The position numbers were made by a program, and so were the translations under genes. A stretch of 64,000 nucleotides of DNA from NCBI RefSeq assembly GCF_030013595.1, contig NZ_CP122768.1, one strand, 5' to 3'. The number at the start of each line of letters is the position of its first letter. The stretch's first letter is position 1. Under the pieces are notes generated by a model that saw nothing but the letters and a program-made list of their open reading frames with translations, did not search any database and was not told where the DNA came from. This DNA comes from Escherichia coli. Lineage in GTDB: Bacteria > Pseudomonadota > Gammaproteobacteria > Enterobacterales > Enterobacteriaceae. Positions 8,195 through 54,879 of this stretch are shown in pieces.

Positions 8195-9396
8195 TACATT
8201 GCCTGGAACAGCGCGTCATCGAGCTGCGTGCTGGTAGCGATAACTTTGGTGTTGGCCTGATAGTTACGCTGGGCGGTCATCAAGTTGACCAGTTCGCTGG
8301 TGATATCGACGTTAGAGCTTTCGAGCACGCCGGACGACAGCGTGCCGCAGGTGCCGGAGCCGGGAACGCCAATCAGCGGGGTGCCGGACTCGCCCGTTTG
8401 TACCCACGCGGTGCCGCTCACTGCCTCCAGGCCGTTTTCATTCGGGAAAGTCGCCAGCACCACCTGCCCCTGCAACATGCGCTCGCCGTTGCTGTAGGTG
8501 GCGTAAACTTTGCCATCGTCATCAACCTGCACACCGTTTTGCGTTGCGGAGGCGTAGCCGTTGGCAGCGTTGGTGGTGACCGAGAAGTCCGAGCCGTATT
8601 GCGTACAAGTGGTGTAATCGACGGTTAAGTCGATGGGTGCGGCGGCGTCGGTCTGAAACTCAATGGTCTGCGGTGTGGTTGGCGAGGTCAGCTTCCCGGT
8701 ATTCGGGTCGAAAGTTAAGGTCGTCGCCGGAACGCCAGTCTGCTGCTGACCGTCGAAGGTGTACTGCACTTCCCAGGTGTTTTCGCTGGTTTTGGTGAAA
8801 TACTGGCATACCGAGTGTTCGTTACCTAATGAGTCATACACCGTGGTGGTGTAGCTGTCGGTGTACGAGCTGCTGTTGGTCGGGTCGAACGGTACGGTGG
8901 TGCGATCGATAGCTTCATCGCTGGCGTTGAAGTTAGCGGTAAAGGTCAGGCTGCTGCTGGCCTGCGCCGGGATATTGCCGGTTTTGATCTGGATATCGGT
9001 GACCGTACCGGTTTGCAGAGTGCCCGTGTCATCGACCGGATAACCCTGTAAATAAGCGCCCGAGGCGTTGACAATATAGCCGTTTTTGTCGGTTTCAAAC
9101 GATCCGGCGCGGGTATAAGAAATGTTGCCCGCGCTGTCGCAGGTCACAAAAAAGCCATCGTTGTTAATCGCCAGATCCAGCGCGTTACCGGTGGAGACCA
9201 GCGAACCGCCGCGCGAAATGCTTTGCGCGGTGCCTGCCACGCTGACGCCCATCGCCTGACTTCCGGCATACATGGCTGAAAACTGGGTGGTCATCGACTT
9301 ATAGCCTACCGTTCCGGCGTTGGCGATGTTGTTACTGATCCCGTCGAGCTGTTCGTTAACGGCATTCAGCCCCGTTGCGGCAATTTCATAACTCAT
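8194..9396 (-). CDS. lfgE: Flagellar hook protein FlgE
   Basis: 400 aa; N-terminal MSYEIAATGLNAVNEQLDGISNNIANAGTVGYK. Confidence 0.9.
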   Translation of the reverse strand: MSYEIAATGLNAVNEQLDGISNNIANAGTVGYKSMTTQFSAMYAGSQAMGVSVAGTAQSISRGGSLVSTGNALDLAINNDGFFVTCDSAGNISYTRAGSFETDKNGYIVNASGAYLQGYPVDDTGTLQTGTVTDIQIKTGNIPAQASSSLTFTANFNASDEAIDRTTVPFDPTNSSSYTDSYTTTVYDSLGNEHSVCQYFTKTSENTWEVQYTFDGQQQTGVPATTLTFDPNTGKLTSPTTPQTIEFQTDAAAPIDLTVDYTTCTQYGSDFSVTTNAANGYASATQNGVQVDDDGKVYATYSNGERMLQGQVVLATFPNENGLEAVSGTAWVQTGESGTPLIGVPGSGTCGTLSSGVLESSNVDITSELVNLMTAQRNYQANTKVIATSTQLDDALFQAM

Positions 9397-9442
9397 TGTT
9401 TCGTCCTGTTAATTCAAATTTTGACAGCGTGCCCGTTGTTTT

Positions 9443-9521
9443 GCCGGATGCGGCGAACGCCTTATCCGGCCTACAAAACCATGCAGTTTCATGTAGGCCT
9501 GATAAGCGAAGCGCATCAGGC
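9443..9521. repeat. BIME: two inverted REP elements
   Basis: gccggatgcggcgaacgccttatccggcctac followed by inverted gtaggcctgataagcgaagcgcatcaggc. Confidence 0.75.
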
Positions 9522-40539: not shown

Positions 40540-40773
40540 GTGGGATATCTGCCCAACAGCAGCGACACGCCGGTGATCAAAATCAGCGCCAAATGGCTGA
40601 GAGAAGCGGGATTTGAGATCGGCACGGGCGTTACCGTGAAGATCCCGGAAGGTTGCCTGATCCTGCTTGCGGATAACAACGGAGTACAGGAACTGAGGAA
40701 GGAACTTTATAAGGTTAAACAGGCTGTTAAGGGGATGCGTGACGGGATGTTTAGTGTGCTGAACGAAAGTTAA
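40540..40773 (+). CDS. SymE-family toxin homologue (AbrB-fold), N-terminus ambiguous
   Basis: PVIKISAKWLREAGFEIGTGVTVKIPEGCLILLA resembles the SymE core; homology continues upstream in frame to a stop at 40480; an ATG at 40463 is in a different frame. Confidence 0.5.
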   Translation: MGYLPNSSDTPVIKISAKWLREAGFEIGTGVTVKIPEGCLILLADNNGVQELRKELYKVKQAVKGMRDGMFSVLNES

Positions 40774-40780
40774 ATAATAA

Positions 40781-40816
40781 AAAAGCCGGGAAGATTTAAT
40801 TTTCCTCCCGGCTTTT
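40781..40816. terminator. Rho-independent terminator between convergent genes
   Basis: gccgggaag-atttaatttt-cctcccggc followed by ttttatttt. Confidence 0.7.
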
Positions 40817-40819
40817 ATT

Positions 40820-41068
40820 TTAGCTTAAAAGTATTTTTTCGATATATTCACTAACCTTTGAATTAACTCCTGATATATATTCATTATCTTTACCAGAGTA
40901 AAATTTTAAAGAACCTTCCAAATTATCATGAAGAACAAGAAGATCATAAGCAAGTAATTTTGGGATAAGCGAAGCACTTTGATAATCAGTCATTACTTTA
41001 TCAAGTGACATATATAGCCTATCAATTATGTTTGTATCTAAATCATCCGCTAATCTAATCATTTCCAC
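40820..41068 (-). CDS. Hypothetical small protein (82 aa, AT-rich)
   Basis: ORF with distinct AT-rich codon usage, bounded by the terminator and the IS end; no recognisable domain. Confidence 0.4.
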   Translation of the reverse strand: MEMIRLADDLDTNIIDRLYMSLDKVMTDYQSASLIPKLLAYDLLVLHDNLEGSLKFYSGKDNEYISGVNSKVSEYIEKILLS

Positions 41069-41107: not shown

Positions 41108-42679
41108 TTACTGAGAGCTCAGATCAACTTTCCAGGGCAACAGATCGCGTACCCGGTTTGCCGGCCAGTCCTGGATATGTTCAATGACGTAACGCAGCCA
41201 CTTTTCTGGCTCCACATTGTTCAGACGGCATGTGCCGATCAGCGAGTACAACACCGCCGCATGTTCACCACCGCTGTCGGAACCCGCGAACATCCAGTTT
41301 TTCCGGCCTACGGCCACTCCCCGTAAGGCGTTCTCTGCGATGTTGTTGTCGATTTCCACCCAGCCATTACTGCAGTACACGTTCAGTGCATCCCACTGTT
41401 TCAGCAGGTATGCGAACGCTTTTGCCGTATCTGAGTGACGCGACAGTGTTTTCATCTGTTGCTGTATCCAGTCATACAGTGACTGCATCAGTGGCGCGGC
41501 TCTGGCTTTTCTTGCCGCCAGACGCTGTTCTGCTGAACAGCCCCGGACCTCTGCCTCGATGGCATACAGTTCACCGATACGCTGCAGGGCTTCCGTGGTG
41601 ATGTAGGTGGGCGCTCTTGCATGCACATCGTGGATTTTTCTCCGGGCATGAGCCATACACGCGGCTTCCGTTATTCTGCCGGATTCGTATAACGCCCGGT
41701 AACCACCGTAAGCATCGGCCTGAAGCACACCGCTGTAACCGGCCAGGTGATTTTGTGGATGGATACCTTTCCGGTCCGGACTGTACGCGAACCAGACCGC
41801 CGGGGGCATCTGTGAACCGGCGTTACGGTCATCACGGACGTAGACCCACAGCCGGGCTGTCCGGGTTTTACCGCTGCCCGGCTCCTGGACCGGGACGGGG
41901 ATATCATCAGCATGGACTTTACCGGGCATCAGCACATACTGGCGCAGGACGTCATACAGCGGCTCCAGCAGTTCAGCAACAGCACCTGTCCAGCGCCCCA
42001 GTGTGGCACGGCTCAGCTCCACTCCCTGACGACGGTATATTTCTGACTGGCGGTATAACGGCAGATGGTCTGCATATTTCCCGGTGACAACATGGGCCAG
42101 AAGCCCCGCTCCGGCATAACTGCGTGCAATGGGTTTTGAAGGTACTGGTGCCTGTACGATATGGTCGCACCGGCAACAGGCCTGTTTCGGACGTTGTGTT
42201 TCGATAACCTTAAAGGCGCTGCTGATAAGCTCCAGTTGCTCTGACACATCACATCCCAGAGAACTGAGTTCACCACCACAGGCAGGACAGCATTCCTCTT
42301 CCGGCCGGATAACCCGGGTTTCACGGGGAAGTGAGGCCGGTAACGGTTTACGGGCTGAAGACTGGCGCAGGGCGGATGGCAGTACCGGGTCATATTGCTC
42401 ACCCAGCGTTTCCGCCATTTCTTCCTGAAGTGCGCTGATTCGCTCCTGTGCTTCCTGTATCTGCCGTTCGGTTTTTGCACGAAGTTTTTCTGAGCTTTTA
42501 CCGAACTGCATACGTTGCAGTTTCGCAACCAGCGCCTTCAGCCGGTTGATTTCGGAAGCATAAGCCGCCACCCGCTGTGAGAGCAGGCGGTTGTATTCAG
42601 CCATCTGGCGGATGGTGTCCTGTTGCGTCTGCAACAGTGCCCGCAGGCGGGCGTTCTCATGAGCAAGTGAGGTGTCCAT
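41108..42679 (-). CDS. IS66-family transposase TnpC
   Basis: 523 aa; N-terminal coiled coil, Cys-rich zinc-finger region, DDE-type catalytic core. Confidence 0.9.
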
Positions 42680-42698
42680 ATCCTCACTTTACAACGGG

Positions 42699-43046
42699 TT
42701 ATATGCGGATTCCAGCGCGTTCCGTTCGTTTCGGGTGCTTCCAGTTGATACCTTCAAGAAGCATGGATAACTGAGCCGGAGTAAGGTGCACCTTGCCGTC
42801 ACGGGTGACTGGCCAGACGAAGCGGCCCCGCTCCAGGCGTTTGGTGAAGAGGCACAGTCCGTCACTGTCAGCCCACAACACTTTTATCTGGTCACCCCGG
42901 CGTCCGCGGAAGATGAACAGGTGTCCGGAGAACGGGTCATCCTTCAGGACGTTCTGAACTTTTGATGCCAGGCCGTTAAAGCCATTTCGCATATCGGTGA
43001 TACCTGCAACCAGCCAGATACGCGAACCTGCAGGGAGAGATATCAT
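42699..43046 (-). CDS. IS66-family accessory protein TnpB
   Basis: 115 aa; overlaps the tnpA stop. Confidence 0.85.
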   Translation of the reverse strand: MISLPAGSRIWLVAGITDMRNGFNGLASKVQNVLKDDPFSGHLFIFRGRRGDQIKVLWADSDGLCLFTKRLERGRFVWPVTRDGKVHLTPAQLSMLLEGINWKHPKRTERAGIRI

Positions 43047-43720
43047 CAGTGGCTGCTCCCTTTTATTTCGCGGATAAGTGTCTGTAATAACGCCGGCGTC
43101 AGTTTACCTTTAAGCCTGAGAGTTCCGGCCGGCAGAACCAGCTCACAACACAGACTGTCGGACGGTGTATTTATCTGCTCTGGTTCCTGTGCGGGGGCCG
43201 GGATTTTATTATCCGGCTCCGGCGTTAACGTCACGGGAAGCAGTGCCGGCATATTTTTTCCGGAAGGCAGCAGGCCACCTTTCCGGTATTGATGGCGCCA
43301 GTTGAAGAGCAGGTTATCGTTGATTCCGTTTTCCCGGGCGATCTGCGCCACACAGGCTCCGGGCTGCAGTGACTGCTCCACTAAGGCGATTTTAAACTCA
43401 TAAGGGAAGTTGGGCCGCCGGGGACGTTTTTTTACCACGGGGGCTTCGGATATAACGGTGCTTTCAGGACGTACGACTGGTACCGTGGAAAATTGTCCGT
43501 AAAGGCAGGCATCAAGTTCCTGCTCCGACATGCCTGCGGGCAAAGGCCACGAAAGGCCAGCTCTCCGAAAGCGCACGAACATACTACAAACTGTTGATTT
43601 TGGTACACCCAGGCGACGCCCGGCCACAACCCGGGGTAAATGTTCTTCAAAGTGAAGACGTAAAGCTTCAGTGATCCAGGTCCGGTGTTTCATACGATAG
43701 TGTCCATTAAAAATGGACAT
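43046..43720 (-). CDS. IS66-family accessory protein TnpA
   Basis: 224 aa; N-terminal HTH-like region; first ORF of the IS66 triplet. Confidence 0.8.
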   Translation of the reverse strand: MSIFNGHYRMKHRTWITEALRLHFEEHLPRVVAGRRLGVPKSTVCSMFVRFRRAGLSWPLPAGMSEQELDACLYGQFSTVPVVRPESTVISEAPVVKKRPRRPNFPYEFKIALVEQSLQPGACVAQIARENGINDNLLFNWRHQYRKGGLLPSGKNMPALLPVTLTPEPDNKIPAPAQEPEQINTPSDSLCCELVLPAGTLRLKGKLTPALLQTLIREIKGSSH

Positions 43721-43772: not shown

Positions 43773-44237
43773 CTATTCAGCTTCATAAAGCTTTTTGAAC
43801 ATGGGGCTTTGATCCCAGGCGATCCCTTTGTAACGCTTCATATTTTTCCGCAATTCATCCTTTGAAAGATTCATAAAACGGATTTTTAATTTTTCATCGG
43901 TTTCAGTGTTGTAAACCAAATGTTCCATCCCACGCCAGGAGGACTCCAGTTTCTGAAATTCCGGATGACTCAGGATTAGTTTGATCTGCTCAGTTAATTT
44001 GAAATCGATCTGCTCAATAATCGCAGCAATACTTTTATAAGCGTCGTCACTGACGGTGACGGTATTTGTCAAAGCCTGTTGGGCCAGCGTCTGAACTGCT
44101 GCCTCAACAGCCTTTGCTGCCTGAGGTGTCTTGGGACGGAAGGCTTTATCCAGGAGCGAATCAAATTCAGTGTCCTGATAGGCAGTGGTTTGCGCAGCAG
44201 AGAGTTCGCCAGTCGCCAGAAGAGTATCGTTTACCAT
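43773..44237 (-). pseudogene. tssC: T6SS sheath large subunit TssC, 3'-truncated by the IS66 insertion
   Basis: Only about 154 N-terminal residues (ends ...SPMFKKLYEAE, which I recognise as the start of the conserved TssC core) before the IS terminal repeat creates a stop. Confidence 0.8.
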
Positions 44238-44261: not shown

Positions 44262-44807
44262 TTAGTCTGCTGTTCCCGTTTCACCTGATAAGACACTTTC
44301 CTGTTGAGCGACAGGTTTTGGCGCACTAGCCAGAGCTTTCAGTAACGTAGGGTCTTGTAATAGTTTGTTGATAAGATTTTCTGCTCCCGCTTTACCATCC
44401 ATGTAGGTTTGTAGGTTGGCAAGCTGAGTACGCGCTTCCAGCAGCTGGTTCAGGGCATCCACCTTACGGGCAATCTGCGCAGGCGAAAAATCGTCCATAT
44501 TCTCTAACGTGATATCGACCATTAACTGCCCTTCGCCCGTCAGCGTATTGGGGACAGCAAACGCCACGCGCGGCGCAATGGCTTTCATCCTCTCGTTGAA
44601 GTTATCGATATCAATATCAAGGAATTTACGATCGGTGACCGGCGGCAGCTCTTCACGCGGTTTACCCGCCAGGTCGGCCAGCACCGCCATGACAAACGGC
44701 AGTTCGATTTTTTTCTCGGAGCCGTAAATCTCAACGTCATACTCAATCTGCACGCGGGGCGCGCGGTTGCGGGCAATAAACTTCTGCGCGCTGTTGTTGA
44801 TAGCCAT
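44262..44807 (-). CDS. tssB: T6SS sheath small subunit TssB
   Basis: 181 aa; PRVQIEYDVEIYGSEKKIELPFVMAVLADL is the TssB signature. Confidence 0.9.
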   Translation of the reverse strand: MAINNSAQKFIARNRAPRVQIEYDVEIYGSEKKIELPFVMAVLADLAGKPREELPPVTDRKFLDIDIDNFNERMKAIAPRVAFAVPNTLTGEGQLMVDITLENMDDFSPAQIARKVDALNQLLEARTQLANLQTYMDGKAGAENLINKLLQDPTLLKALASAPKPVAQQESVLSGETGTAD

Positions 44808-44868: not shown

Positions 44869-45159
44869 TTAAAAATCATACGCAGAGAGTATTTTTATAA
44901 TCTCTTTGTTTTCTTTGTACTTTTCCCGAAGCACAGGGAGTGATTTCTTCGCCGGAGGACACCAGGTATCAACCCCCTTTTCGATGTCTCTTTTATCCTT
45001 CTCTGGTAAAGAACTGTCCCATTCACCAGCAAGATGCTGGCACATTTCCGCATTACTCAGAAAATGCTGTACATCCTGTGGTAAAGACGGTTCCCCCTGA
45101 ACACTGAAAGCGAACATCATTAACAGGAATGTCCACAACACCGGATAACGAAATGTCAT
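44869..45159 (-). CDS. Small secreted protein, candidate immunity protein
   Basis: 96 aa; signal peptide (FLLMMFAFSVQG), two Cys; directly downstream of the M15 peptidase gene. Confidence 0.5.
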   Translation of the reverse strand: MTFRYPVLWTFLLMMFAFSVQGEPSLPQDVQHFLSNAEMCQHLAGEWDSSLPEKDKRDIEKGVDTWCPPAKKSLPVLREKYKENKEIIKILSAYDF

Positions 45160-45161
45160 AC

Positions 45162-45725
45162 TTAATGTCCATCAATTGACCAGTGGGGTATATCTGTATT
45201 TCCGCCTACAAATTTTCTGACGCCGTAACCCAGACCTACCGCCTGAAGCTGGGCATTCATTCCGGTTCGATGTAGTGTATTAATTGCAACATTCTGACCA
45301 TTGCTCCCCGCAATTGTTAATGTTCCGCTCCAACTGATATTCATATCTATCGCAGTACCGCGTGTATGGTTGGAGCTCAGTGCAGGCGCGACATTCAGAT
45401 TATTCATACCATAGGCCGTAACCATAGCCTGCGCCGCTTCAAGCGAGGCTTGCTCAGTCGGGTGAACCCACTCAATATCCACCCCCTCCATCGCCGGGAC
45501 GTTTTTTGCCTGAACGATTTCCTGAGCAATCAACCATGACCAGTGCATGAGATATGCTCTGGCGGGAGGGCGATATGTTGCAGAGATACTGACCCTTGCA
45601 CGCGCATTACCAAGCGCGCGCAAAAAATTATCTACCGATGCACGAAAAGTCCCCTGCAAATCATTAGTGGAAGAACTTCCAGGAAAGCGACTGACCCACA
45701 GTGCGCCACTTAATTCTTTTGCCAT
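45162..45725 (-). CDS. LAS/M15-family zinc peptidase, candidate peptidoglycan-targeting T6SS effector
   Basis: 187 aa, no signal peptide; SNHTRGTAID fits the SxHxxGxAxD zinc-binding motif; C-terminal IPHWS. Confidence 0.6.
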   Translation of the reverse strand: MAKELSGALWVSRFPGSSSTNDLQGTFRASVDNFLRALGNARARVSISATYRPPARAYLMHWSWLIAQEIVQAKNVPAMEGVDIEWVHPTEQASLEAAQAMVTAYGMNNLNVAPALSSNHTRGTAIDMNISWSGTLTIAGSNGQNVAINTLHRTGMNAQLQAVGLGYGVRKFVGGNTDIPHWSIDGH

Positions 45726-45737
45726 AAGGATGCTCCA

Positions 45738-48371
45738 TTAATCCGTTTCAAAAATAATCTGTTCATCCTCATCAACACGAATGCGGATTTGCGTGATGGC
45801 CGTTTTCTCTGTCATCGCCTGCAACCAATAACGGGACAGTTGTGGGAGGATATGTTGTTCGATATAGCCGATGAGCAAACGAGCGCCGGTCTCGTGCATC
45901 GGGCAGCGCGACACAATATGCGTAATCAGTTCATCGCCATACACCAGTGAAACGCCATGCCGCTCCGCCATCCGATCCATCAATCTGCCAAGATGCAGGC
46001 GGGCAATAACACCACGCGCGGTCTCATCCAGCGGTAAATAAGGAATAACCGTCACACGCCCCAGGAAAGCCGCCGGGAAGTGTTTACGTAACTCCGGCAT
46101 TAACGCCTCTTTTAACCCTGCCGAATCGGGCATCAGCGCCGGATCTTCACAGAGCTGGCTGATAAGTTCCGCCCCCGCGTTAGTAGTCAACAACAGCGTG
46201 GTATTTTTGAAATCGATGTGGACACCTTCGCCATCTTCCATCGCCCCCTTATCAAACACCTGGAAGAACAGCTCGTGGACGTCGTGATGGGCTTTTTCAA
46301 TTTCATCTAGCAATACCACGCTCCAGGGATGGCGGCGTACCGCTTCCGTCAACACACCGCCTTCGCCATAGCCGACGTAGCCGGGCGGCGCGCCTTTCAG
46401 AGTGGAGACTGTGTGAGACTCCTGATACTCGCTCATGTTGATGGTGATCAGATTCTGTTCACCGCCATAGATTGCTTCTGCCAGTGCCAGCGCGGTCTCA
46501 GTCTTGCCTACTCCGGACGGCCCGGCCAGCAAAAAGACACCCACAGGCTTACGCGGGTCACCTAAACCCGCCCGCGCGGTCTGGATACGCTCGCCAATCT
46601 GCGCCAACGCATCCATCTGCCCGGTAACACGCTGCGCCAAACGGGTGGGCAATTCCAGTATCTGACTGGCTTCATCTTTCACCATCCGTCCGGCGGGAAT
46701 ACCGGTCCAGTCGGAGACAATCTCTGCCACCACGGTTGCACTGACTTCCGGGTACACGACAGGGTTTTCACCCTGCCAGCCTCTTAATGCCGTTTCTGCC
46801 TGTTGTAGAGTGATTTCGTCGCGCTCGCCAGGCGCTGCGCCGCGTTGCTCCTGTAAACTGCGAACCAACTCCAGTTCCTGCTGCCACCGCGCTTCGGTGT
46901 CAGAAAGATCGGCATTAAGCGATATAATCCGCGCCGTCAGTACATCGCCCCGCTCCGAGCGGATACCCATTTTTTCCTGCTTTAATAACAACTCCTGCTC
47001 CAGTTCGGCAGCGTTGAGCTGCTGGCGCAGATACTGGACTCTCGCAGGCGGGGTATGCAGCGACAGCGCTACACGGGCCGCCGCCGTATCCAACAGGCTG
47101 ATGGCCTTATCCGGTAGTTGCCGGGCCGGAATGTAACGGTGAGAAAGCTGTACGGCGGCGCGCACGGCCTCATCAAGAATCAGGACATCATGGTGTTCTT
47201 CAAGCGTGGTGACTAATCCGCGCACCATCTCAACAGCCGCAACCTCTTCCGGCTCAGCAACCTGCAATACCTGAAAACGCCGGGTCAGCGCCGGATCCTT
47301 TTCGATATGGCGTTTGTACTCGCTCCAGGTGGTTGCGCCGATGGTGCGCAGAGTGCCACGCGCCAGCGCCGGTTTCAGCAAGTTGGCAGCATCCCCCGTA
47401 CCGGATGTACCACCAGCGCCCACCAGGGTGTGAACTTCATCAACAAAAAGTATCACCGGCTGCGCCGAGCGCGCGGCCTCTTCCAGCAAAGCTTTCAGGC
47501 GGGATTCAAATTCACCCTTCATGGACGCCCCAGCCAGCAGCGCTCCAACATCCAGTGACAGCAACCGCACGTTACGCAGTGAAGGCGGCACTTCCCCCCC
47601 GGCAATCGCCAGCGCGAATCCTTCCACCACTGCCGTTTTCCCGACCCCCGCCTCGCCGGTCAGCAGCGGGTTGTTCTGGCGACGGCGCAGCAGAATATCC
47701 GTCATAGTACGGATCTCGTGTTCGCGGCCGGTGACCGGATCGATATTGCCTTCACGGGCCAGCGCAGTCATGTCCTGGCAGTATTTCGCCAGCGCGGATT
47801 TACTTCCGGTTGATTCGCCGGCAAAGACCTGGCTAGCTTCCCCCGGTACTGCAGAATTTAAATCCGAGCCGTCATAAGGCATTTCTGTTAATTCAGGAGA
47901 TGAAGTGATTAAAGACGGAAGAATATCTAATAGTTCATCTACCGGTAGCTCTGCCAATGGCGCACAAATATTTTTTAACACCCGACACAATTCTGGCGTG
48001 GTTAACCAGGCAAGTAATAACCATCCACTACGAATTTTTTGATCGCCAAAGCGGATACTTGCCAACATCCAGGCTTTTTCAACAGAAAGATCGATATGAT
48101 GGGAAAAATCGTTAATTACACTCGCTCCGGCAGGCAATATATTCAATTGCTGAATTAACGCCTTCTCAACATCAGCAGATGTTATTTGATAATGTCGAAG
48201 CACATTGTGAATGTCATTCTCTGGTTGTTGTATTAACTGATGCAACCAATGCGTCAGTTCGACATAAGGATTAGCGCGTAATTTACAGAACGTCGTCGCA
48301 GATTCCAAAGATCTAAACAAAGATTTGGTTAGCTTTCCATACAGTGCACTGCGCGAAACAGGAGTGTCCAT
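45738..48371 (-). CDS. clpV: T6SS AAA+ ATPase ClpV (TssH)
   Basis: 877 aa; two AAA+ modules (GEAGVGKT, GPSGVGKT) and a ClpV-type N-domain. Confidence 0.9.
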   Translation of the reverse strand: MDTPVSRSALYGKLTKSLFRSLESATTFCKLRANPYVELTHWLHQLIQQPENDIHNVLRHYQITSADVEKALIQQLNILPAGASVINDFSHHIDLSVEKAWMLASIRFGDQKIRSGWLLLAWLTTPELCRVLKNICAPLAELPVDELLDILPSLITSSPELTEMPYDGSDLNSAVPGEASQVFAGESTGSKSALAKYCQDMTALAREGNIDPVTGREHEIRTMTDILLRRRQNNPLLTGEAGVGKTAVVEGFALAIAGGEVPPSLRNVRLLSLDVGALLAGASMKGEFESRLKALLEEAARSAQPVILFVDEVHTLVGAGGTSGTGDAANLLKPALARGTLRTIGATTWSEYKRHIEKDPALTRRFQVLQVAEPEEVAAVEMVRGLVTTLEEHHDVLILDEAVRAAVQLSHRYIPARQLPDKAISLLDTAAARVALSLHTPPARVQYLRQQLNAAELEQELLLKQEKMGIRSERGDVLTARIISLNADLSDTEARWQQELELVRSLQEQRGAAPGERDEITLQQAETALRGWQGENPVVYPEVSATVVAEIVSDWTGIPAGRMVKDEASQILELPTRLAQRVTGQMDALAQIGERIQTARAGLGDPRKPVGVFLLAGPSGVGKTETALALAEAIYGGEQNLITINMSEYQESHTVSTLKGAPPGYVGYGEGGVLTEAVRRHPWSVVLLDEIEKAHHDVHELFFQVFDKGAMEDGEGVHIDFKNTTLLLTTNAGAELISQLCEDPALMPDSAGLKEALMPELRKHFPAAFLGRVTVIPYLPLDETARGVIARLHLGRLMDRMAERHGVSLVYGDELITHIVSRCPMHETGARLLIGYIEQHILPQLSRYWLQAMTEKTAITQIRIRVDEDEQIIFETD

Positions 48372-48703: not shown

Positions 48704-49624
48704 ATGAAACCAAATATTACGTGGGGACTCCAAAAAATACAGGCGCACGGGATCGCCGATAACACAATTTACGCGACTGAAGGAACCCAAATTATCTTCA
48801 CCGTTACCTCCCCCTGGATTCCTGTTTTTGAGGTGAATGATGATGTAAAGATTGCCCTCAGTCTGACCCGCCACGAAGAAGCATGGTGGATTATCAATCA
48901 GTCTACCGAATATTGCTGTACGGTAAACGACCAGATTGTGGAACCTCATCACCGTATGCGTCTGAATGAAGGCGACCTGATAGAATGGGGGTTATCTTCA
49001 TGGTGCCTTGTGCACGGCAATCCATCATCTCCGGACCTGAGCGCAGTAAAAACGACATCGCAGACTGCCACCATGTCGGAAACAATAACCGAATATCTGG
49101 ATCTGGATTGGTTCAGGCAGCAGCATCTGACATCACAAAATCCATTCGATATCATTCCTGTTCATGGAGCCTCCTCCACTGGAGAAGATGCTAAAAAAGA
49201 AAATGCCCTGACTCGACTTTATCAGGAATACCGCGAGGCGTTGTTATCTCCTGAACAAGATCTTCATCGCCATGCTGATCCTTTTCCCTTTAACGAAGAG
49301 CCCTCCTCACAGGATCTGGATTCATTGCGTGATCTGGTCACTGAAGCCGAGACATTGCAGGATATGGTCACTGGCGGGTTAAGCATTGACGCTATTCTCG
49401 ATGTCCTGGACGCCACCGGCGAAGGGGAAACCGCCTGGCCTGCCGAAAAGACGCCCCCAGATATCCTGCACCTGCTATCCCCGGAATGCGCACCGGAAAC
49501 AGCGCATAACACCGTTCTGCCCGACCTGACACGCAAAGAGCATCGCATCATTGGCATTGACATTGACAGCCATTATCGGATAAACCCGGCACAACACGGA
49601 GAGATATCTCATGACAAACAATAA
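48704..49624 (+). CDS. T6SS-associated FHA-domain protein (TagH/Fha-like)
   Basis: 306 aa; N-terminal region resembles an FHA fold; heads the plus-strand T6SS operon. Confidence 0.55.
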   Translation: MKPNITWGLQKIQAHGIADNTIYATEGTQIIFTVTSPWIPVFEVNDDVKIALSLTRHEEAWWIINQSTEYCCTVNDQIVEPHHRMRLNEGDLIEWGLSSWCLVHGNPSSPDLSAVKTTSQTATMSETITEYLDLDWFRQQHLTSQNPFDIIPVHGASSTGEDAKKENALTRLYQEYREALLSPEQDLHRHADPFPFNEEPSSQDLDSLRDLVTEAETLQDMVTGGLSIDAILDVLDATGEGETAWPAEKTPPDILHLLSPECAPETAHNTVLPDLTRKEHRIIGIDIDSHYRINPAQHGEISHDKQ

Positions 49625-50441
49625 CGAGCTACCGGCTACCCTGTCGGCGCTGCTGCGGGATTATTCCGTGGCGGAGGGCATTCAAATGGCAGAACAGCAG
49701 GTCAGGATGCACCCGGCGCAGGCCTCCCGCCGCCACAGCCTATTTCAGTTATTGTGCGTGGCAGGCTACTGGTCGCGGGCACTGCAACAGATCCAGCTAT
49801 GCGCCCGGATGGACGCAAATTATACCCGCGAAGCGCAGGTATTTGGCGAGCTGATACGCTGTGAGATATACCGCCACGCCTGCTTTCAGGGAGAACAGCG
49901 GCCCGATTTTATTCTCCCGCCGCCCGCCTGGATGGAGGATCTGCTGACCGCCCTCGCCTGTAACGCTCGTGGTGAAGCGCAGGAAGCTGACGCCCACCGC
50001 AGCCGCGCACTTGAGGCCATAACAGATACTGCAGGGCAGTGGAATGGTGGCGCATTTGACTGGATTAGCGACAGCGACTCCCGTACCGGTCCGGTACTCG
50101 AACTCATCGCGGGCGGAGTATATATCTGGCTGCCGTTTTCACAAATCTGTTCGCTAAAATCGCCGCGGCCTGCGCATCTGACCGATTTGATCTGGAAACC
50201 CGTCAACGTCACACTGAATAATGGCGACACACACAGTGCCTGGCTGTTTTCCCGCTACAGCGGCTCTGAAAAGGCTGCCGACTCCCTGCGTCTGTGCCGG
50301 GAAACGGTCTGGCAGGACGGGCCGGGAGAGACTCTGGTACAGGCGCTGGGTCAGAGGGTGTGGCTCACCGGTCACGGCGATATCAGCCTGCTGGATTTGT
50401 CCACCTGTACCTTTAACACCGCTGAAGGAAGCGACGCGTGA
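49611..50441 (+). CDS. tagJ: T6SS accessory protein TagJ (ImpE family)
   Basis: 276 aa; pattern LFQLLCVAGYW ... GPVLELIAGGVYIWLPF matches ImpE/TagJ. Confidence 0.7.
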   Translation: MTNNNELPATLSALLRDYSVAEGIQMAEQQVRMHPAQASRRHSLFQLLCVAGYWSRALQQIQLCARMDANYTREAQVFGELIRCEIYRHACFQGEQRPDFILPPPAWMEDLLTALACNARGEAQEADAHRSRALEAITDTAGQWNGGAFDWISDSDSRTGPVLELIAGGVYIWLPFSQICSLKSPRPAHLTDLIWKPVNVTLNNGDTHSAWLFSRYSGSEKAADSLRLCRETVWQDGPGETLVQALGQRVWLTGHGDISLLDLSTCTFNTAEGSDA

Positions 50442-50932
50442 GCGCTTCCCGCCAGCGTCCGGGCAATCACCTGCTGCCCACGCTGTTTGACCGCCTGTGT
50501 GATGATGCCCCAAACCAGAAACGCGACCACGATATCAGCGTCAGCCCGGTTCAGCTTAAGGAGATCATTCGCCGGGATTTGTCATTTCTGCTCAACACCG
50601 TCAGCCATGAAGATGATATTGATGCTGCACGTTATCCGGACGCGGCAGCGTCCGTACTGAACTACGGCCTGCCGCCACTGGCGGGCAGCTTTCTGTATGA
50701 ACACAAGTGGGACGATATTCGCAGGGCCATTTTGCGTACCATCATCCGGTTTGAACCCCGGCTGAAAGCGTCCACCCTGCAAATCATCCCACTTCAGGAT
50801 GAGCGCCACCAGAGCGGCCATAACACATTACAGTTTGAAATTCGCGGCGAGATCCTCACGCAGCCCTACCCGATGGCATTCCGGGTACGCAGCGCGCTGG
50901 ATATGGAACAGAGCCGCATTACGTTTTTTTAA
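50438..50932 (+). CDS. tssE: T6SS baseplate protein TssE
   Basis: 164 aa; LLPTLFDRLCDD N-terminal motif; GTG start overlapping the tagJ stop. Confidence 0.8.
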   Translation: MSASRQRPGNHLLPTLFDRLCDDAPNQKRDHDISVSPVQLKEIIRRDLSFLLNTVSHEDDIDAARYPDAAASVLNYGLPPLAGSFLYEHKWDDIRRAILRTIIRFEPRLKASTLQIIPLQDERHQSGHNTLQFEIRGEILTQPYPMAFRVRSALDMEQSRITFF

Positions 50933-50947
50933 TTCAGAGAGAAACCG

Positions 50948-52830
50948 ATGGATCCACGGCTACTGGAATACTACAACCGCGAACTGAGCTATCTGCGGGA
51001 AACGGGAGCCGAATTTGCCGCCCGTCATCCTAAAGTCGCCGCCCGACTGGGTATGCAGGGAACGGATATTGCCGATCCGTATGTGGAGCGAATGGTCGAG
51101 GCCTTCAGCTTCCTGACCGCCCGCACGCAGCTAAAAATTGACGCTGAATTCCCCCGTTTCACCCAGCGTCTGCTGGAAGTGGTCAGCCCCAATTACGTCA
51201 CACCCACGCCCTCAATGAGCGTGGCGCAGCTTCATCCCAATCCGGAAGAAGGCGATCTGGCGAAGGGATTCACCGTCCCGCGCAACACGGCCTTTTTTTC
51301 CGCCATTCCGGAAGGCGAAAGTACCGCCTGCCAGTTTCGTAGCAGCCAGAATGTGACGCTGTGGCCGCTTGCCATCGAAGAGGTGCGGCTGACCGCCGCG
51401 CCGCCGGATATGCCTGCCCTGCACCGCTACCTGCCAGCCAACATTCACGTCGCTGGTGCGCTGCGTATTACCCTGCGCACCTTTGGTGAACTGACGTTCA
51501 GTCAGCTTGCAGGGCTGAACAAGCTGCCATTTTATCTCTGCGGCGAGGAGCGCACGGCCTCACACCTGTTCGAACTACTGCATACCAGCGCCATCGCGAG
51601 CCTGGCTGGCATTCCGGGGCATTTTGACGGCGCACTGGATGTGAATCTGAAACAGCCCGTTATGTACGAAGGCCTGGATCCGGATCAGGGACTGTTGCCG
51701 CTGGCGTGGAATGTGTTTCACGGCCATAACCTGCTACATGAATATTTTACCTGTCCGGAACGCTTCTTTTTTTCACCCCGACAGGCCTGTCTGCCGGGTT
51801 ACAGAAAATTAACGGCGGCGTGGCGGAGATTGTTATCCTGCTGAACCGCCTGCCGCCGGACTGGCTGATCCACCAGACAAACGCGGCACAGTTCAGCCTG
51901 TTCTGTACCCCGGTTATCAACCTGTTTCCCCGCGTCGCCGCCCGGATCGATGTCACGCACAGCACGACGGAACAGCATCTGGTGGTGGACAGAACCCATC
52001 CGCTGGATTATGAGGTGTTCTCGGTCCAGGAAGTGGAAGGGCTGGAAACTGACACCACACGGAAGATGGCCTTTCGCCCGCTCTACCACACCCGCAATAA
52101 TGATGAAGGCAATCACGGACGTTATTTTTCCCTGCGCCGGGAGCCGCGCCGGTTGTCGGAAAATGCCCGCCGCTATGGCACCCGCACCTCCTATACAGGA
52201 TCAGAAGTGTTCCTGTCGCTGGTTGACCAGTATGAAGCGCCGTACCCGGAAAATCTGCGCCATATCACCATCACGGCTATGGTCACCAACCGCGATCTGC
52301 CCTGTCTTATTGCCCGCAATGGACGGGACGATCTGACCGTGGATGCGGCCATCCCGGTGGCGGGCGTGGGGCTTATCCGTCCGCCGCGTCCGCCGCAGCC
52401 TCCGCTGGCTGAACGTGAAATGGCCTGGCGGTTGATCCGCCAGTTATCCTTTAACTATCTGCCGCTGGCCGATCTGGATCACCGTACCGGTGGTCAGGCG
52501 CTGCGCGATCTGCTTAACCTGTTTATTCCGGCGCATGACAGTCCGCAGTCGCGCCAGGTGCGCAGCCTGATTGGCTGCAACACCACCCCGGTCACCCGCC
52601 GTCTGCCCGGTTCCGGGCTGCTGGTCTATGGGCGCGGCGTCAGTTGTGAACTGACCGTGGATGAGGAGGGGTTCTCCGGTATCAGTCCGTATCTGTTCGG
52701 TCTGGTGTTGGAGCACTATATCGCCCGTCATGTTTCCATTAATACCTTCTCGCAGATGACGCTGCACAGCATGCAGCGCGGCAAAATTATGACCTGGCCT
52801 GCCAGGGCGGGACAGCGGGGAAGCGTATGA
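50948..52830 (+). pseudogene. tssF: T6SS baseplate protein TssF, frameshifted in a T7 homopolymer (51767-51773)
   Basis: Two overlapping ORFs (50948-51844 frame 2; 51820-52830 frame 1) together give a TssF-length protein; an eighth T would restore ...ERFFFFTPTGLSAGL... Confidence 0.7.
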
Positions 52831-53822
52831 GCGACGATTTCACTCAGGCGCAGGAAACCCCCTGGCGTTACGGTTTTCTGAACCTGATGCGCCGCGTGGA
52901 TGTGCAGTTGTGTACTGTTCCGGCAGGCAACACCTGGCAACCACGGATGGAAAAATTTCGCCTCGGACAAACTCCCGCGCTGACCTTTGCGCCACGGGAA
53001 ATCGCCAGTGTGAGCTGGCAGGAAGAGCGGCTGCACATCAGTTTGTACAGTCTCGGGCTGTGGGAGCCGAACGGTCCACTGCCGCTGCACTACACCGAAC
53101 TGGCGCGCAACCGGACTGAAAGCCGAAGAGACCCGACGCTAACCCGTTTTTCTGATCTTTTTCATCACCGCTGGCTGACGCAGTTTTACCAGGCATGGCG
53201 CAGCGCCCAGTCCGCTGGGGGCGGTCTGGATAAACCACAACATGACCGTTTTGCCTTTTATATCGCCAGCCTCAGCGGGCAGGATTTGCGGGAGAGCGCC
53301 GACAGCCCGTTGCCGGATCACGCTCGCCTGGCGGCATCGGCCCATCTGGTGCGTGAGTCCCGCAATCCGGACGGTCTGGCCACCACGCTGGCGCACTATT
53401 TCGGTGTACCTTTCCGGATACAGGAGTATGTCCTGCACTGGATAGCCGTGGCGGACGATGAGATCACCCGGCTGGGGATGCCAGCCCCCTCTTCCGTTAT
53501 TGGCAACGGTGCACTCATCGGCCAGGCCGTGCCGGACATGCAGTATAAGTTCCGGCTGGTTATCGGCCCGCTGACGCTGGAGGATTACCGACGTTTTCTG
53601 CCTGGCGGCAATAACCTGCCAGTCCTGACAGAACTGGTCCGCGCCTTTAGCGGTTTTGAATACTGCTGGGAAATTGAGCTACAGCTAAAGCCCCACGCCG
53701 CCCCTCCGGCTGTTACCGGTGGTTCGTACCAACTGGGCTGGACCGCATGGGCGGGTAAAGCCATGCACGAAAACCCGGTGACGGGCATGATTTTCGAACC
53801 AGAACACTACCTGGCGCACTGA
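52827..53822 (+). CDS. tssG: T6SS baseplate protein TssG
   Basis: 331 aa after tssF; TssG-like N-terminus. Confidence 0.8.
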   Translation: MSDDFTQAQETPWRYGFLNLMRRVDVQLCTVPAGNTWQPRMEKFRLGQTPALTFAPREIASVSWQEERLHISLYSLGLWEPNGPLPLHYTELARNRTESRRDPTLTRFSDLFHHRWLTQFYQAWRSAQSAGGGLDKPQHDRFAFYIASLSGQDLRESADSPLPDHARLAASAHLVRESRNPDGLATTLAHYFGVPFRIQEYVLHWIAVADDEITRLGMPAPSSVIGNGALIGQAVPDMQYKFRLVIGPLTLEDYRRFLPGGNNLPVLTELVRAFSGFEYCWEIELQLKPHAAPPAVTGGSYQLGWTAWAGKAMHENPVTGMIFEPEHYLAH

Positions 53823-53832
53823 GGATAATTTA

Positions 53833-54879
53833 ATGGATACATCCCTGTCTGACCCAATTTCGGCAGAATGCCCCTGCGGCCCGGATCTGGAGTACGATCC
53901 GGAATACCTGCTACTGTTCACGCGCGCCGCACCGCGTGAAGAAGCGCAATACGGCGATTTTGTCAGTACGCCGGAAACCATTAACTGGGCGGAGCTTGAG
54001 CGGGATGCCTGCCGACTGCTGACGCGCAGCAAAGATATCCGCATTCTGGTTGTCCTGCTGCGCTGCCGTATCCAGCAGGCCGGTGCCAGGGGACTGGCGG
54101 AGGCGCTCGCGCTGCTGGAAACGTTGTGCGCCACGTACCCGAACGCCATCCATCCTCAACTGCTCGCGACTGAAGATATCACCGCCGAAGAGGCGGCAGT
54201 GGCACGTAGTAACGCCCTGGCGGCGTTGCTGGACCATGAAGGCGTAATAGCGGATATTCGTGGCATTACACTGTCAAACAATGCTGCCATACGCCTTCAG
54301 GTACGGGATGTGGAGCGTTCGCTGTCTGCATCACGCCCGGCGGATGCGCTGGCACCAGAATCGGTACGCCAGCAACTGGCCGACCTGGAGGCGCGCGGCA
54401 CACTGCCGCTGGATGCCTTTCGCCAGGCCGCAGAGACCACTGAGCGGCTGCAACGCCATGCGCGTGAAACGCTGAATGACCAGGCACCGAACCTATCCCG
54501 TCTGACACAATTGCTGGCCCTGTTGCCGGGAGCGATACGGACCACCACGCCGGAGATCCTGCCACAACCAGTGGCTGAACAGCCGGAGAGCACCACCATC
54601 GTTCATACTGAACAGATATCATCAGAGCAGATTGCGCTACCGGTGCATATCGCGGAGGAAATATCACCGATGTCCGGCGCAGACCCCCGGCAGATCCGCG
54701 ACCGGAACGACGCGCTGGAACGCCTGCGTGTCATCCGTCGCTGGTTTGAGCACAGCGAACCGAGCAGCCCGACCATTCCTTTGCTGCGCCAGGCAGAACG
54801 CCTGGTCGGAAAACGCTTCTCGGAGGTAATAAATGAAATTCCAGTAGAACTGCTGGAAAAATGGGATGCGCTGGAGTAA
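53833..54879 (+). CDS. tssA: T6SS protein TssA (ImpA N-terminal domain)
   Basis: 348 aa; ImpA_N-type motif CGPDLEYDPEY; gagga ribosome-binding site. Confidence 0.8.
   Translation: MDTSLSDPISAECPCGPDLEYDPEYLLLFTRAAPREEAQYGDFVSTPETINWAELERDACRLLTRSKDIRILVVLLRCRIQQAGARGLAEALALLETLCATYPNAIHPQLLATEDITAEEAAVARSNALAALLDHEGVIADIRGITLSNNAAIRLQVRDVERSLSASRPADALAPESVRQQLADLEARGTLPLDAFRQAAETTERLQRHARETLNDQAPNLSRLTQLLALLPGAIRTTTPEILPQPVAEQPESTTIVHTEQISSEQIALPVHIAEEISPMSGADPRQIRDRNDALERLRVIRRWFEHSEPSSPTIPLLRQAERLVGKRFSEVINEIPVELLEKWDALE

Follow-up and report, generated by a model that had tools for sequence, protein, structure and literature searches.

What is the function of a small peptidase gene and a small secreted-protein gene that stand between clpV and tssB, two core genes of a type VI secretion system (T6SS), in a strain whose T6SS cluster is broken? 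The locus that raises this question lies in a 64,000-nucleotide stretch of the Escherichia coli contig NZ_CP122768.1 (hereafter, the window). A first-pass annotation, made from the letters of the window, had proposed that the two genes form a T6SS effector-immunity pair. Our in silico analysis supports this proposal through the predicted fold of the peptidase, the conservation of its secreted partner, and the linkage of its relatives to PAAR and VgrG genes; the pair is probably an antibacterial T6SS cargo effector together with its cognate immunity protein. Both open reading frames (ORFs) are found exactly where they had been annotated, between clpV and tssB on the minus strand, and comprise the following elements (aa, amino acids; nt, nucleotides):

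45162-45725, minus strand: candidate T6SS effector gene, 187 aa, a stand-alone domain with predicted LAS/M15-type zinc peptidase fold, without signal peptide
45345-45374, minus strand: effector codons 118-127, SNHTRGTAID (SxHxxGxAxD; predicted zinc ligands H120 and D127)
45183-45194, minus strand: effector codons 178-181, D-I-P-H (predicted catalytic acid D178 and third zinc ligand H181)
44869-45159, minus strand: candidate periplasmic immunity gene, ORF of 96 aa, ATG 2 nt past the effector stop
45094-45159, minus strand: immunity codons 1-22, predicted Sec signal peptide (MTFRYPVLWTFLLMMFAFSVQG; hydropathy 1.99 over residues 6-20)

Predicted fold and active site of the peptidase

The 187 aa protein contains the motif S118-N-H-T-R-G-T-A-I-D127, which fits the SxHxxGxAxD signature of the LAS metallopeptidases, and D178-I-P-H181-W near its C terminus. 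This signature, with the C-terminal PHW, had already been recognised in the first-pass annotation, and its ligands proved to be invariant or nearly so across the family: H120, D178 and H181 are invariant in two alignments (A1, 46 sequences; A2, 28 sequences), D127 is invariant in A1 and nearly so in A2, and R52 is invariant in the alignment as well. The only Pfam match was to Peptidase_M15_4 (PF13539), below threshold at E=0.12 over 16 residues, and the best NCBIfam match was to DdpX, with 14.5 bits against a cut-off of 176 (E=0.021) and over the metal motif only; SNHTRGTAID is the only stretch that these two models match. Searches of PHROGs and of PDB sequences, with the single protein and with a 46-sequence profile, gave nothing significant, and a VanY profile reached E=4e-3 at best, in 3 of the 46 family members.

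Because the sequence profiles gave nothing significant, the fold was taken from structure prediction. The AlphaFold2 (AF2) model of the 187 aa protein has a predicted local distance difference test score (pLDDT) of 96.6 and a predicted template modelling score (pTM) of 0.87, and in a Foldseek comparison with the PDB all of ranks 1-16 were occupied by LAS/M15 enzymes, namely Ply500 (E=1e-4), VanX, LdcB, VanY, LysB4 and ChiX. The same LAS/M15 (hedgehog/DD-peptidase) fold was obtained in two independent structure comparisons, so that the M15 assignment for which a profile check had been proposed was recovered by structure and missed by Pfam. The spacing of the predicted site equals that of His68, Asp75, Asp120 and His123 in ChiX of Serratia marcescens, an enzyme that cuts the L-Ala-D-Glu bond and whose activity is abolished by D120A (PMC5778951). 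Ply500 has the D-x-x-H pair as Asp130/His133, and VanX has Glu at the position equivalent to D178 (PMC5778951). From the model and the alignments we conclude that the 187 aa protein is a putative distant LAS zinc peptidase (MEROPS clan MD) with an H-x6-D…D-x-x-H site. Our best guess for the bond it would cut is L-Ala-D-Glu, by analogy from the Asp-type catalytic motif alone.

The LAS L-Ala-D-Glu endopeptidases (MEROPS M15C) ChiX and the phage endolysin domains Ply500 and LysB4 are only 12-17% identical to the window protein, which has in addition an N-terminal helical part of about 100 residues and goes unrecognised by the Pfam models. The genetic company differs too, since the window protein is paired with a candidate immunity gene and T6SS spike genes, whereas ChiX, Ply500 and LysB4 are found with holins or phage lysis cassettes. 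The window protein is predicted to have neither a signal peptide nor a membrane segment, because its most hydrophobic 15-mer averages only 0.81 on the Kyte-Doolittle scale; this agrees with the first reading of the sequence.

Clustered at 90% identity, the peptidase family comprises more than 359 clusters, and at 50% it has at least 1151 representatives (E<=1e-3). Its members are without precomputed Pfam domains and are labelled "hypothetical" or "peptidoglycan-binding domain-containing protein". Copies from Paenibacillus bear Sec signal peptides, and in other members the peptidase domain is fused C-terminally to PG_binding_1 and GH19 (Pfam); the UniProt names of structural neighbours point to further fusions with SLT, pesticin-type lysozyme, PGRP, M23 and LysM. 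In these signal-bearing copies and wall-domain fusions the domain would clearly be extracytoplasmic and wall-directed. NCBIfam detected no Rhs, VgrG or CdiA fusions among the long relatives, the N-termini of which are subtilisin-like, beta-helical or unrecognised. A DUF4157-type N-terminal marker (motif GNxAVQRxL) was suspected in relatives of 260-790 aa; Pfam saw none in the fragments tested, and we treat it as an unverified lead.

The secreted partner

The 96 aa protein begins (MTFRYPVLWTFLLMMFAFSVQG) with an Arg, followed by a 15-residue hydrophobic core (mean Kyte-Doolittle value 1.99) and a V-Q-G cleavage-type site. The Sec signal peptide originally read from this sequence is a property of the whole family, as a signal or lipoprotein signal is present at the N terminus of all 36 aligned homologues, many of them with a lipobox. 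C40 and C67 are invariant in the family, and G45-E46 is nearly so. A word-indexed search found the family confined to Escherichia, Salmonella and Citrobacter (47 clusters). We then examined 80 loci that had been fetched for peptidase homologues from other species (L numbers denote individual loci), using tblastn and an iterated hidden Markov model, and in 37 of them the peptidase gene was followed directly downstream by a member of the family; these 37 span Enterobacterales, Pseudomonas, Burkholderiales, Neisseriales-like genera and Xanthomonadales. The partnership of the peptidase with a small secreted protein, proposed from the window, is thus conserved well beyond it.

An unrelated secreted protein of 173 aa takes the place of the immunity protein in five loci (Ralstonia, Rugamonas and Janthinobacterium). 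One copy lies at L084:8617-9138 and others are in L004, L006, L013, L015 and L069, and the protein is without an NCBIfam match; it is likely an alternative immunity family. Toxin cassettes commonly swap their immunity families.

The association of the two proteins was modelled with AF2 as one chain, consisting of the effector, a 30-residue Gly/Ser linker and the mature immunity protein, with 28 locus-paired sequences. The fused model reached a pTM of 0.81 with only the linker disordered, and its immunity part folds as three helices at a pLDDT of 91-96. The model suggests a defined effector-immunity complex, with pTM as an indirect sign of docking only. Two further observations concern the partner. 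NCBIfam matched the 96 aa protein to the thiol-disulfide oxidoreductase StoA_CxxC at E=7e-7, with 29 bits against a cut-off of 210; this assignment was rejected, because what matches is the signal peptide plus a "WCPP" string not conserved across the family, and because a fold of three helices is predicted in place of a thioredoxin fold. In an uncultured Erwinia metagenome-assembled genome (MAG; L010:9998-10855), effector and immunity protein form one ORF of 285 aa (…HWSTDGRQMKIHNL…), in which the effector stop is replaced by a sense codon. Either a true fusion or a mistake in assembly could account for this ORF.

Linkage of the family to PAAR and VgrG

The survey of homologues relative to vgrG, PAAR and tss genes that had been suggested for this pair showed PAAR either fused to the peptidase or encoded directly upstream of it, and VgrG directly upstream in Pseudomonas. 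A PAAR domain is N-terminally fused to the peptidase domain in Rhodanobacter glycinis (L050) and Fulvimonas (L070), and these fusion genes sit in clusters with vgrG, tssA, tssM and tssL. The Rhodanobacter fusion, which UniProt annotates as PAAR, is followed by the immunity gene. There are further PAAR fusions among the family representatives, two of which were confirmed by Pfam PAAR_motif (E=2.5e-25 and 7.8e-13). About 19 other loci have a PAAR gene (encoding a protein of about 200 aa) directly upstream. The upstream gene shares the C-terminal module of the PAAR proteins in three Pseudomonas species, and in P. farris a full VgrG of 768 aa ends 8 nt before the effector start.

When the E. coli cluster (structural T6SS genes, Hcp, VgrG, Rhs, Tae4 and BPSL0067) was used as a tblastn query, 10 of the 80 loci had a query-cluster gene within 10 kb. 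A T6SS marker was found in 22 of the 41 loci with the immunity gene versus 3 of the 39 without it (Fisher p=8e-6). Within Escherichia and Salmonella (the window, L001, L002 and L082), the pair is inside the T6SS cluster and occupies the same slot between clpV and tssB. The first-pass annotation had named homologues consistently outside T6SS contexts as evidence that would speak against its proposal; this pattern was seen for an alphaproteobacterial clade and for the Sec-secreted Paenibacillus copies, and not for the immunity-bearing clade of beta- and gammaproteobacteria.

The upstream PAAR and VgrG proteins end in a conserved module of about 75 aa without a Pfam match, TGxPxxNTPYxIxL…GxTDxxGLTQKVSA…IEAPYY…CxC (L005:9316-9927, L033:9376-9990, L023:6956-7552 and L019:2459-4765). 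Only effectors encoded behind this module begin with an extension of the form LTPTxDxTPAVV, which takes up the first 20 or so codons and is present in 15-16 of 19. The module and the extension look like a spike-adaptor and cargo-tag pair. Both are absent from the window and from L001.

Selection on the pair and loss of the effector

The effector has a ratio of nonsynonymous to synonymous substitution rates (dN/dS) of 0.09 and the immunity gene one of 0.15-0.17, in comparisons with the Escherichia sp. and Salmonella copies; both ORFs are judged to be real genes because of these values. A search of 5426 complete E. coli genomes gave 116-117 with the effector/immunity pair, in every case on the chromosome. 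Partial effector matches were seen in 9 of 116 E. coli genomes, of which two, GF4-3 and XJ5.2, were read. In GF4-3, residues 63-182 have been lost in frame between two "HWS" repeats, leaving a 67 aa relic (L086:601-804) that retains no catalytic residue beside an intact immunity gene. XJ5.2 carries the same 67 aa relic (L087:1501-1704), but its immunity gene has been replaced by IS1. The match of a third strain, 6EVA, is of the same two-piece kind (59%). Strain 06-00048 has a frameshift in the effector beside an intact immunity gene.

A different deletion was found in Salmonella enterica (L082, 3900-4000), where the distance from clpV to the immunity gene is only 86 nt. This stretch encodes MPKELSGAQWV, which corresponds to effector residues 1-11, and directly after it, in frame, YGVTKFVGGNTDKPHWSIDGH, the final 21 residues; every catalytic residue is gone. 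Because this 32 aa ORF is a deletion relic without catalytic residues, we read the Salmonella locus as one in which the immunity gene is orphaned and no working pair exists. Purifying selection still acts on this Salmonella gene (dN/dS 0.17 versus E. coli). A UniProt fragment from serovar Napoli points to a long copy, and this single fragment suggests that a few Salmonella strains keep the long effector.

By comparison of these sequences we found at least three independent effector-inactivating events across E. coli and Salmonella, with the immunity gene intact in GF4-3, 06-00048 and Salmonella at a dN/dS of 0.16-0.17. Loss of the toxin with retention of the antidote is what an effector-immunity pair predicts, and a structural role hardly accounts for it. 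The earlier suggestion that the pair persists in the window as an immunity island is supported in spirit and extended by the relatives, in which the effector is lost repeatedly and the immunity gene persists under purifying selection.

Alternative explanations

A structural role in the passage of the T6SS through the cell wall had been named as the alternative from the start, and the position of the gene between two core genes speaks for it. The peptidase would then be a biogenesis enzyme similar to TagX or MltE that opens the producer's own peptidoglycan locally, with the 96 aa protein as its periplasmic regulator. A precedent, TagX of Acinetobacter, is a LAS-type L-Ala-D-Glu endopeptidase, likewise encoded inside a T6SS gene cluster and essential for Hcp export (PMC5061870), and it belongs to the family (PF13539) that gave the sole, weak Pfam match of the window protein. 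TagX, however, is anchored in the membrane by two transmembrane segments (PMC5061870), is essential to the apparatus and has no immunity partner, whereas the window protein appears soluble and dispensable and has a secreted partner; having no hydrophobic segment, it would be unable to reach the wall of its own producer. The gene is also not conserved with the apparatus, as Salmonella SPI-6 (Salmonella pathogenicity island 6) clusters have only the 32 aa relic, and that in 30% of cases (PMC10469887). Several E. coli strains have a deletion or frameshift in the effector, and most homologues are encoded far from structural T6SS genes, beside PAAR or VgrG and with a private secreted partner. With no membrane anchor, no conservation with the apparatus and loss from related clusters, a biogenesis function is strongly disfavoured and, in our judgement, very improbable.

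The absence of a signal peptide is equally what would be expected of a cytoplasmic housekeeping peptidase, for instance a VanX/DdpX-like dipeptidase or an enzyme of murein-peptide recycling, next to which the secreted protein would be functionally unrelated. The best NCBIfam match is to just such an enzyme, the D-Ala-D-Ala dipeptidase DdpX (E=0.021), but at 14.5 bits versus a cut-off of 176 it covers the metal motif only, and where VanX has a catalytic Glu, the window protein has Asp (D-x-x-H), like ChiX and Ply500. This explanation also draws on the alphaproteobacterial clade (L059-L081; MAGs and Rhizomicrobium), in which homologues of 177-190 aa have no signal peptide, immunity gene or PAAR, and follow rarA, crcB, a gene for an RluA-family (rluC-like) pseudouridine synthase, a 230 aa ORF and a DUF559 gene. 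A VanX/DdpX-like cytoplasmic role fits that clade, in which a housekeeping ancestor of the toxins may be seen, but not the window protein's own clade, which is coupled to a secreted partner (2 nt apart here, and in 37 loci) and to PAAR or VgrG. The domain is elsewhere Sec-exported or fused to wall-binding or wall-lytic domains, and the gene has been lost repeatedly. We consider a housekeeping function quite unlikely for the window protein, if slightly less so than one in biogenesis.

The enzyme could also be wall-lytic and leave the cell by another route, through a holin or as cargo of a prophage or of an extracellular contractile injection system, with its position in the T6SS cluster an accident of insertion. 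ChiX is a signal-less LAS endopeptidase that is released by a holin (PMC5778951), the low G+C content of the pair (0.49 and 0.43, versus 0.54 for clpV) suggests an inserted cassette, and some long relatives carry N-terminal regions of non-T6SS type. Yet no holin or phage gene adjoins the pair in the window or in an orphan Pectobacterium locus, PAAR and VgrG are the recurrent partners of the immunity-bearing clade, and Escherichia and Salmonella share the clpV-tssB slot for the cassette. Export of this kind therefore ranks with the biogenesis function as a very remote prospect.

Several observations count against an antibacterial T6SS effector and its immunity protein. The T6SS cluster of the window strain is broken and unable to deliver an effector. 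Roughly half of the homologous loci lack any T6SS gene within a distance of 10 kb, and the alphaproteobacterial clade combines conserved housekeeping synteny with absence of the immunity gene. The Enterobacterales copies, that of the window included, have neither an upstream PAAR/VgrG adaptor nor the N-terminal tag. Finally, the five fused models varied (mean pLDDT 79-89), and the sign of docking is an indirect one via pTM. Weighed together with the evidence above, they leave an effector-immunity pair as the probable explanation.

Proposed function of the pair

As an antibacterial T6SS cargo effector, the 187 aa zinc peptidoglycan peptidase would be made in the cytoplasm without a signal peptide, and strains with a working SPI-6-like T6SS would fire it into the periplasm of neighbouring Gram-negative cells, where it would cut the peptide stems of the target cell wall. 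The 96 aa protein would be exported by Sec into the producer's own periplasm, fold as a small disulfide-stapled helical bundle, and bind and block effector arriving from sister cells. In the window strain, where the apparatus is dead, the immunity gene alone would have obvious present selective value. What we infer in this account is that the T6SS secretes the effector, that the effector is toxic and is neutralised by being bound, which bond it cuts, and how the enterobacterial copies are loaded. For the carrier of the enterobacterial copies, Hcp is a guess, made from their size and by analogy with Tae4.

A wider scheme, which we put forward tentatively and would hold somewhat less probable than its opposite, is that the window protein is the founding member of a large LAS-fold T6SS toxin family with a di-cysteine helical immunity family of its own, the toxins having been recruited from a housekeeping peptidase of the alphaproteobacterial type. 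Outside the Enterobacterales its N-terminal tag would be read by the PAAR/VgrG module, and the tag-less enterobacterial copies would use another carrier.

Relation to published systems

T6SS effectors that degrade the wall and are paired with periplasmic immunity proteins form a well-established class. The window pair is not new in principle; the peptidase family itself is uncharacterised, and had been half-noticed in Salmonella. Our literature searches, made by accession number, surfaced only the study of Blondel et al. 2023, and no paper naming or testing the peptidase family. Blondel et al. 2023 described, for 18 of 60 Salmonella genomes, a 32 aa ORF lying between tssH and tssB that had not been annotated, and predicted, by bioinformatics only, a peptidoglycan-targeting "L-Ala-D-Glu endopeptidase" effector with a downstream immunity protein bearing a signal peptide (PMC10469887); later surveys carry the module forward without experiment. 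The Salmonella SPI-6 module shares the locus and the immunity family with the window, and its immunity protein is 82% identical to the 96 aa protein; unlike the Salmonella relic, the window carries an intact gene of 187 aa. Comparison of the two shows the published 32 aa ORF to be a deletion relic of a family whose intact form stands in the window.

The validated pairs Tae4/Tai4, Tae2/Tai2 and Tlde1/Tldi1 follow the same logic, in that a small signal-less enzyme is encoded next to a periplasmic immunity gene in a variable slot of SPI-6-like clusters. Their folds and chemistry (papain-like amidases and an L,D-transpeptidase fold) are unrelated to those predicted for the window pair, and they have been validated experimentally, whereas the window pair is known from sequence and models. 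M15-type toxin domains have been predicted in silico in T6SS effectors before, as Peptidase_M15_3 in Acinetobacter Tpe14 (PMC6833914) and in the M15-like N-termini of WHIX effectors (PMC12135965). Those proteins are large and multidomain, are matched by existing M15 profiles and are loaded via LysM/VgrG or WHIX; the window family, in contrast, is a separate lineage without a profile, mostly stand-alone and with an immunity family of its own.

The assignment would give a function and a name to a widespread family of "hypothetical" peptidases and to its immunity family. Re-reading the Salmonella 32 aa "candidate effector" as a relic beside an orphan immunity gene would change the counts of the Salmonella effector repertoire. 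The E. coli and Salmonella series (intact gene, frameshift and two in-frame deletions) offers a clean case, from nature, of a toxin being lost and its antidote kept, and the correlation between tag and adaptor provides a testable rule for matching small cargo effectors to PAAR/VgrG spikes.

The T6SS cluster around the pair

The pair is set in the following elements of the window:

45738-48371, minus strand: tssH/clpV, intact, immediately upstream of the effector gene and in the same orientation (TIGR03345, 1219 bits)
44262-44807, minus strand: tssB, intact, immediately downstream of the pair (TIGR03358, 190 bits)
43773-44237, minus strand: tssC 5' fragment, 154 of 504 codons, cut by IS66 (TIGR03355, profile positions 3-132 of 473)
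41108-43720, minus strand: IS66-family element replacing the rest of the cluster (NF033517, 478 bits)
43046-43720, 42699-43046 and 41108-42679, minus strand: parts of the IS66 element, namely tnpA, tnpB and the transposase gene, respectively
48704-54879, plus strand: divergent operon tagK-tagJ-tssE-tssF-tssG-tssA (NCBIfam matches; tblastn versus the intact cluster)

The order on the minus strand is therefore clpV/tssH, the 187 aa ORF, the 96 aa ORF, tssB, the tssC 5' fragment and IS66. The effector ATG lies 12 nt past the clpV stop, with a GGAG within those 12 nt; the effector TAA is followed after 2 nt by the immunity ATG, and 61 nt separate the immunity stop from tssB, so that the cassette is packed tightly, as an operon insert between clpV and tssB. 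The G+C content is 0.49 for the effector gene and 0.43 for the immunity gene, compared with 0.54 for clpV, 0.52 for tssB and 0.53 for the whole window; such low values are consistent with a foreign module inserted between two core genes.

The window was assigned to the aspV-side island of the E. coli chromosome, and over 20 kb its identity to strain 06-00048 is 98.8%; in that strain the cluster runs on through hcp, tssJKLM, Tae4/Tai4, vgrG and Rhs. Homology of the window to the intact cluster stops at 43774, the tssC fragment is 100% identical to residues 1-154 of the intact TssC, and the same type of IS66 element is annotated in a related strain. The gene tssF is split into two overlapping ORFs at 50948-51844 (298 aa) and 51820-52830 (336 aa), which span positions 1-260 and 279-598 of the NCBIfam TssF profile; this frameshift near 51820-51844 is a second inactivating lesion besides the IS66 cut of tssC. 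TssM, TssK, TssJ, TssL, Hcp and VgrG were not found anywhere in the window by tblastn versus the intact cluster. The surrounding T6SS is degenerate, as had been noted at first reading, and the lesions responsible are now defined.

Two small ORFs lie between yafV and the IS66 element: one of 77 aa at 40540-40773 on the plus strand, SymE-like by a partial match to NF010128 (E=2e-9), and one of 82 aa at 40820-41068 on the minus strand, without a family match. These ORFs, spanning 40540-41068, may be what remains of the island's deleted end. Sister E. coli clusters hold other cassettes in other slots (L001:17601-18473; L002:13054-13662; L085:3855-4668 and 8618-9471), including a BPSL0067-family/STY0301-family pair between tssC and hcp, Tae4/Tai4, and a Tlde1-domain protein with a small partner. 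The cluster of the L085 strain is decaying separately, with an internal stop in hcp and a tagK split by insertion sequence elements.

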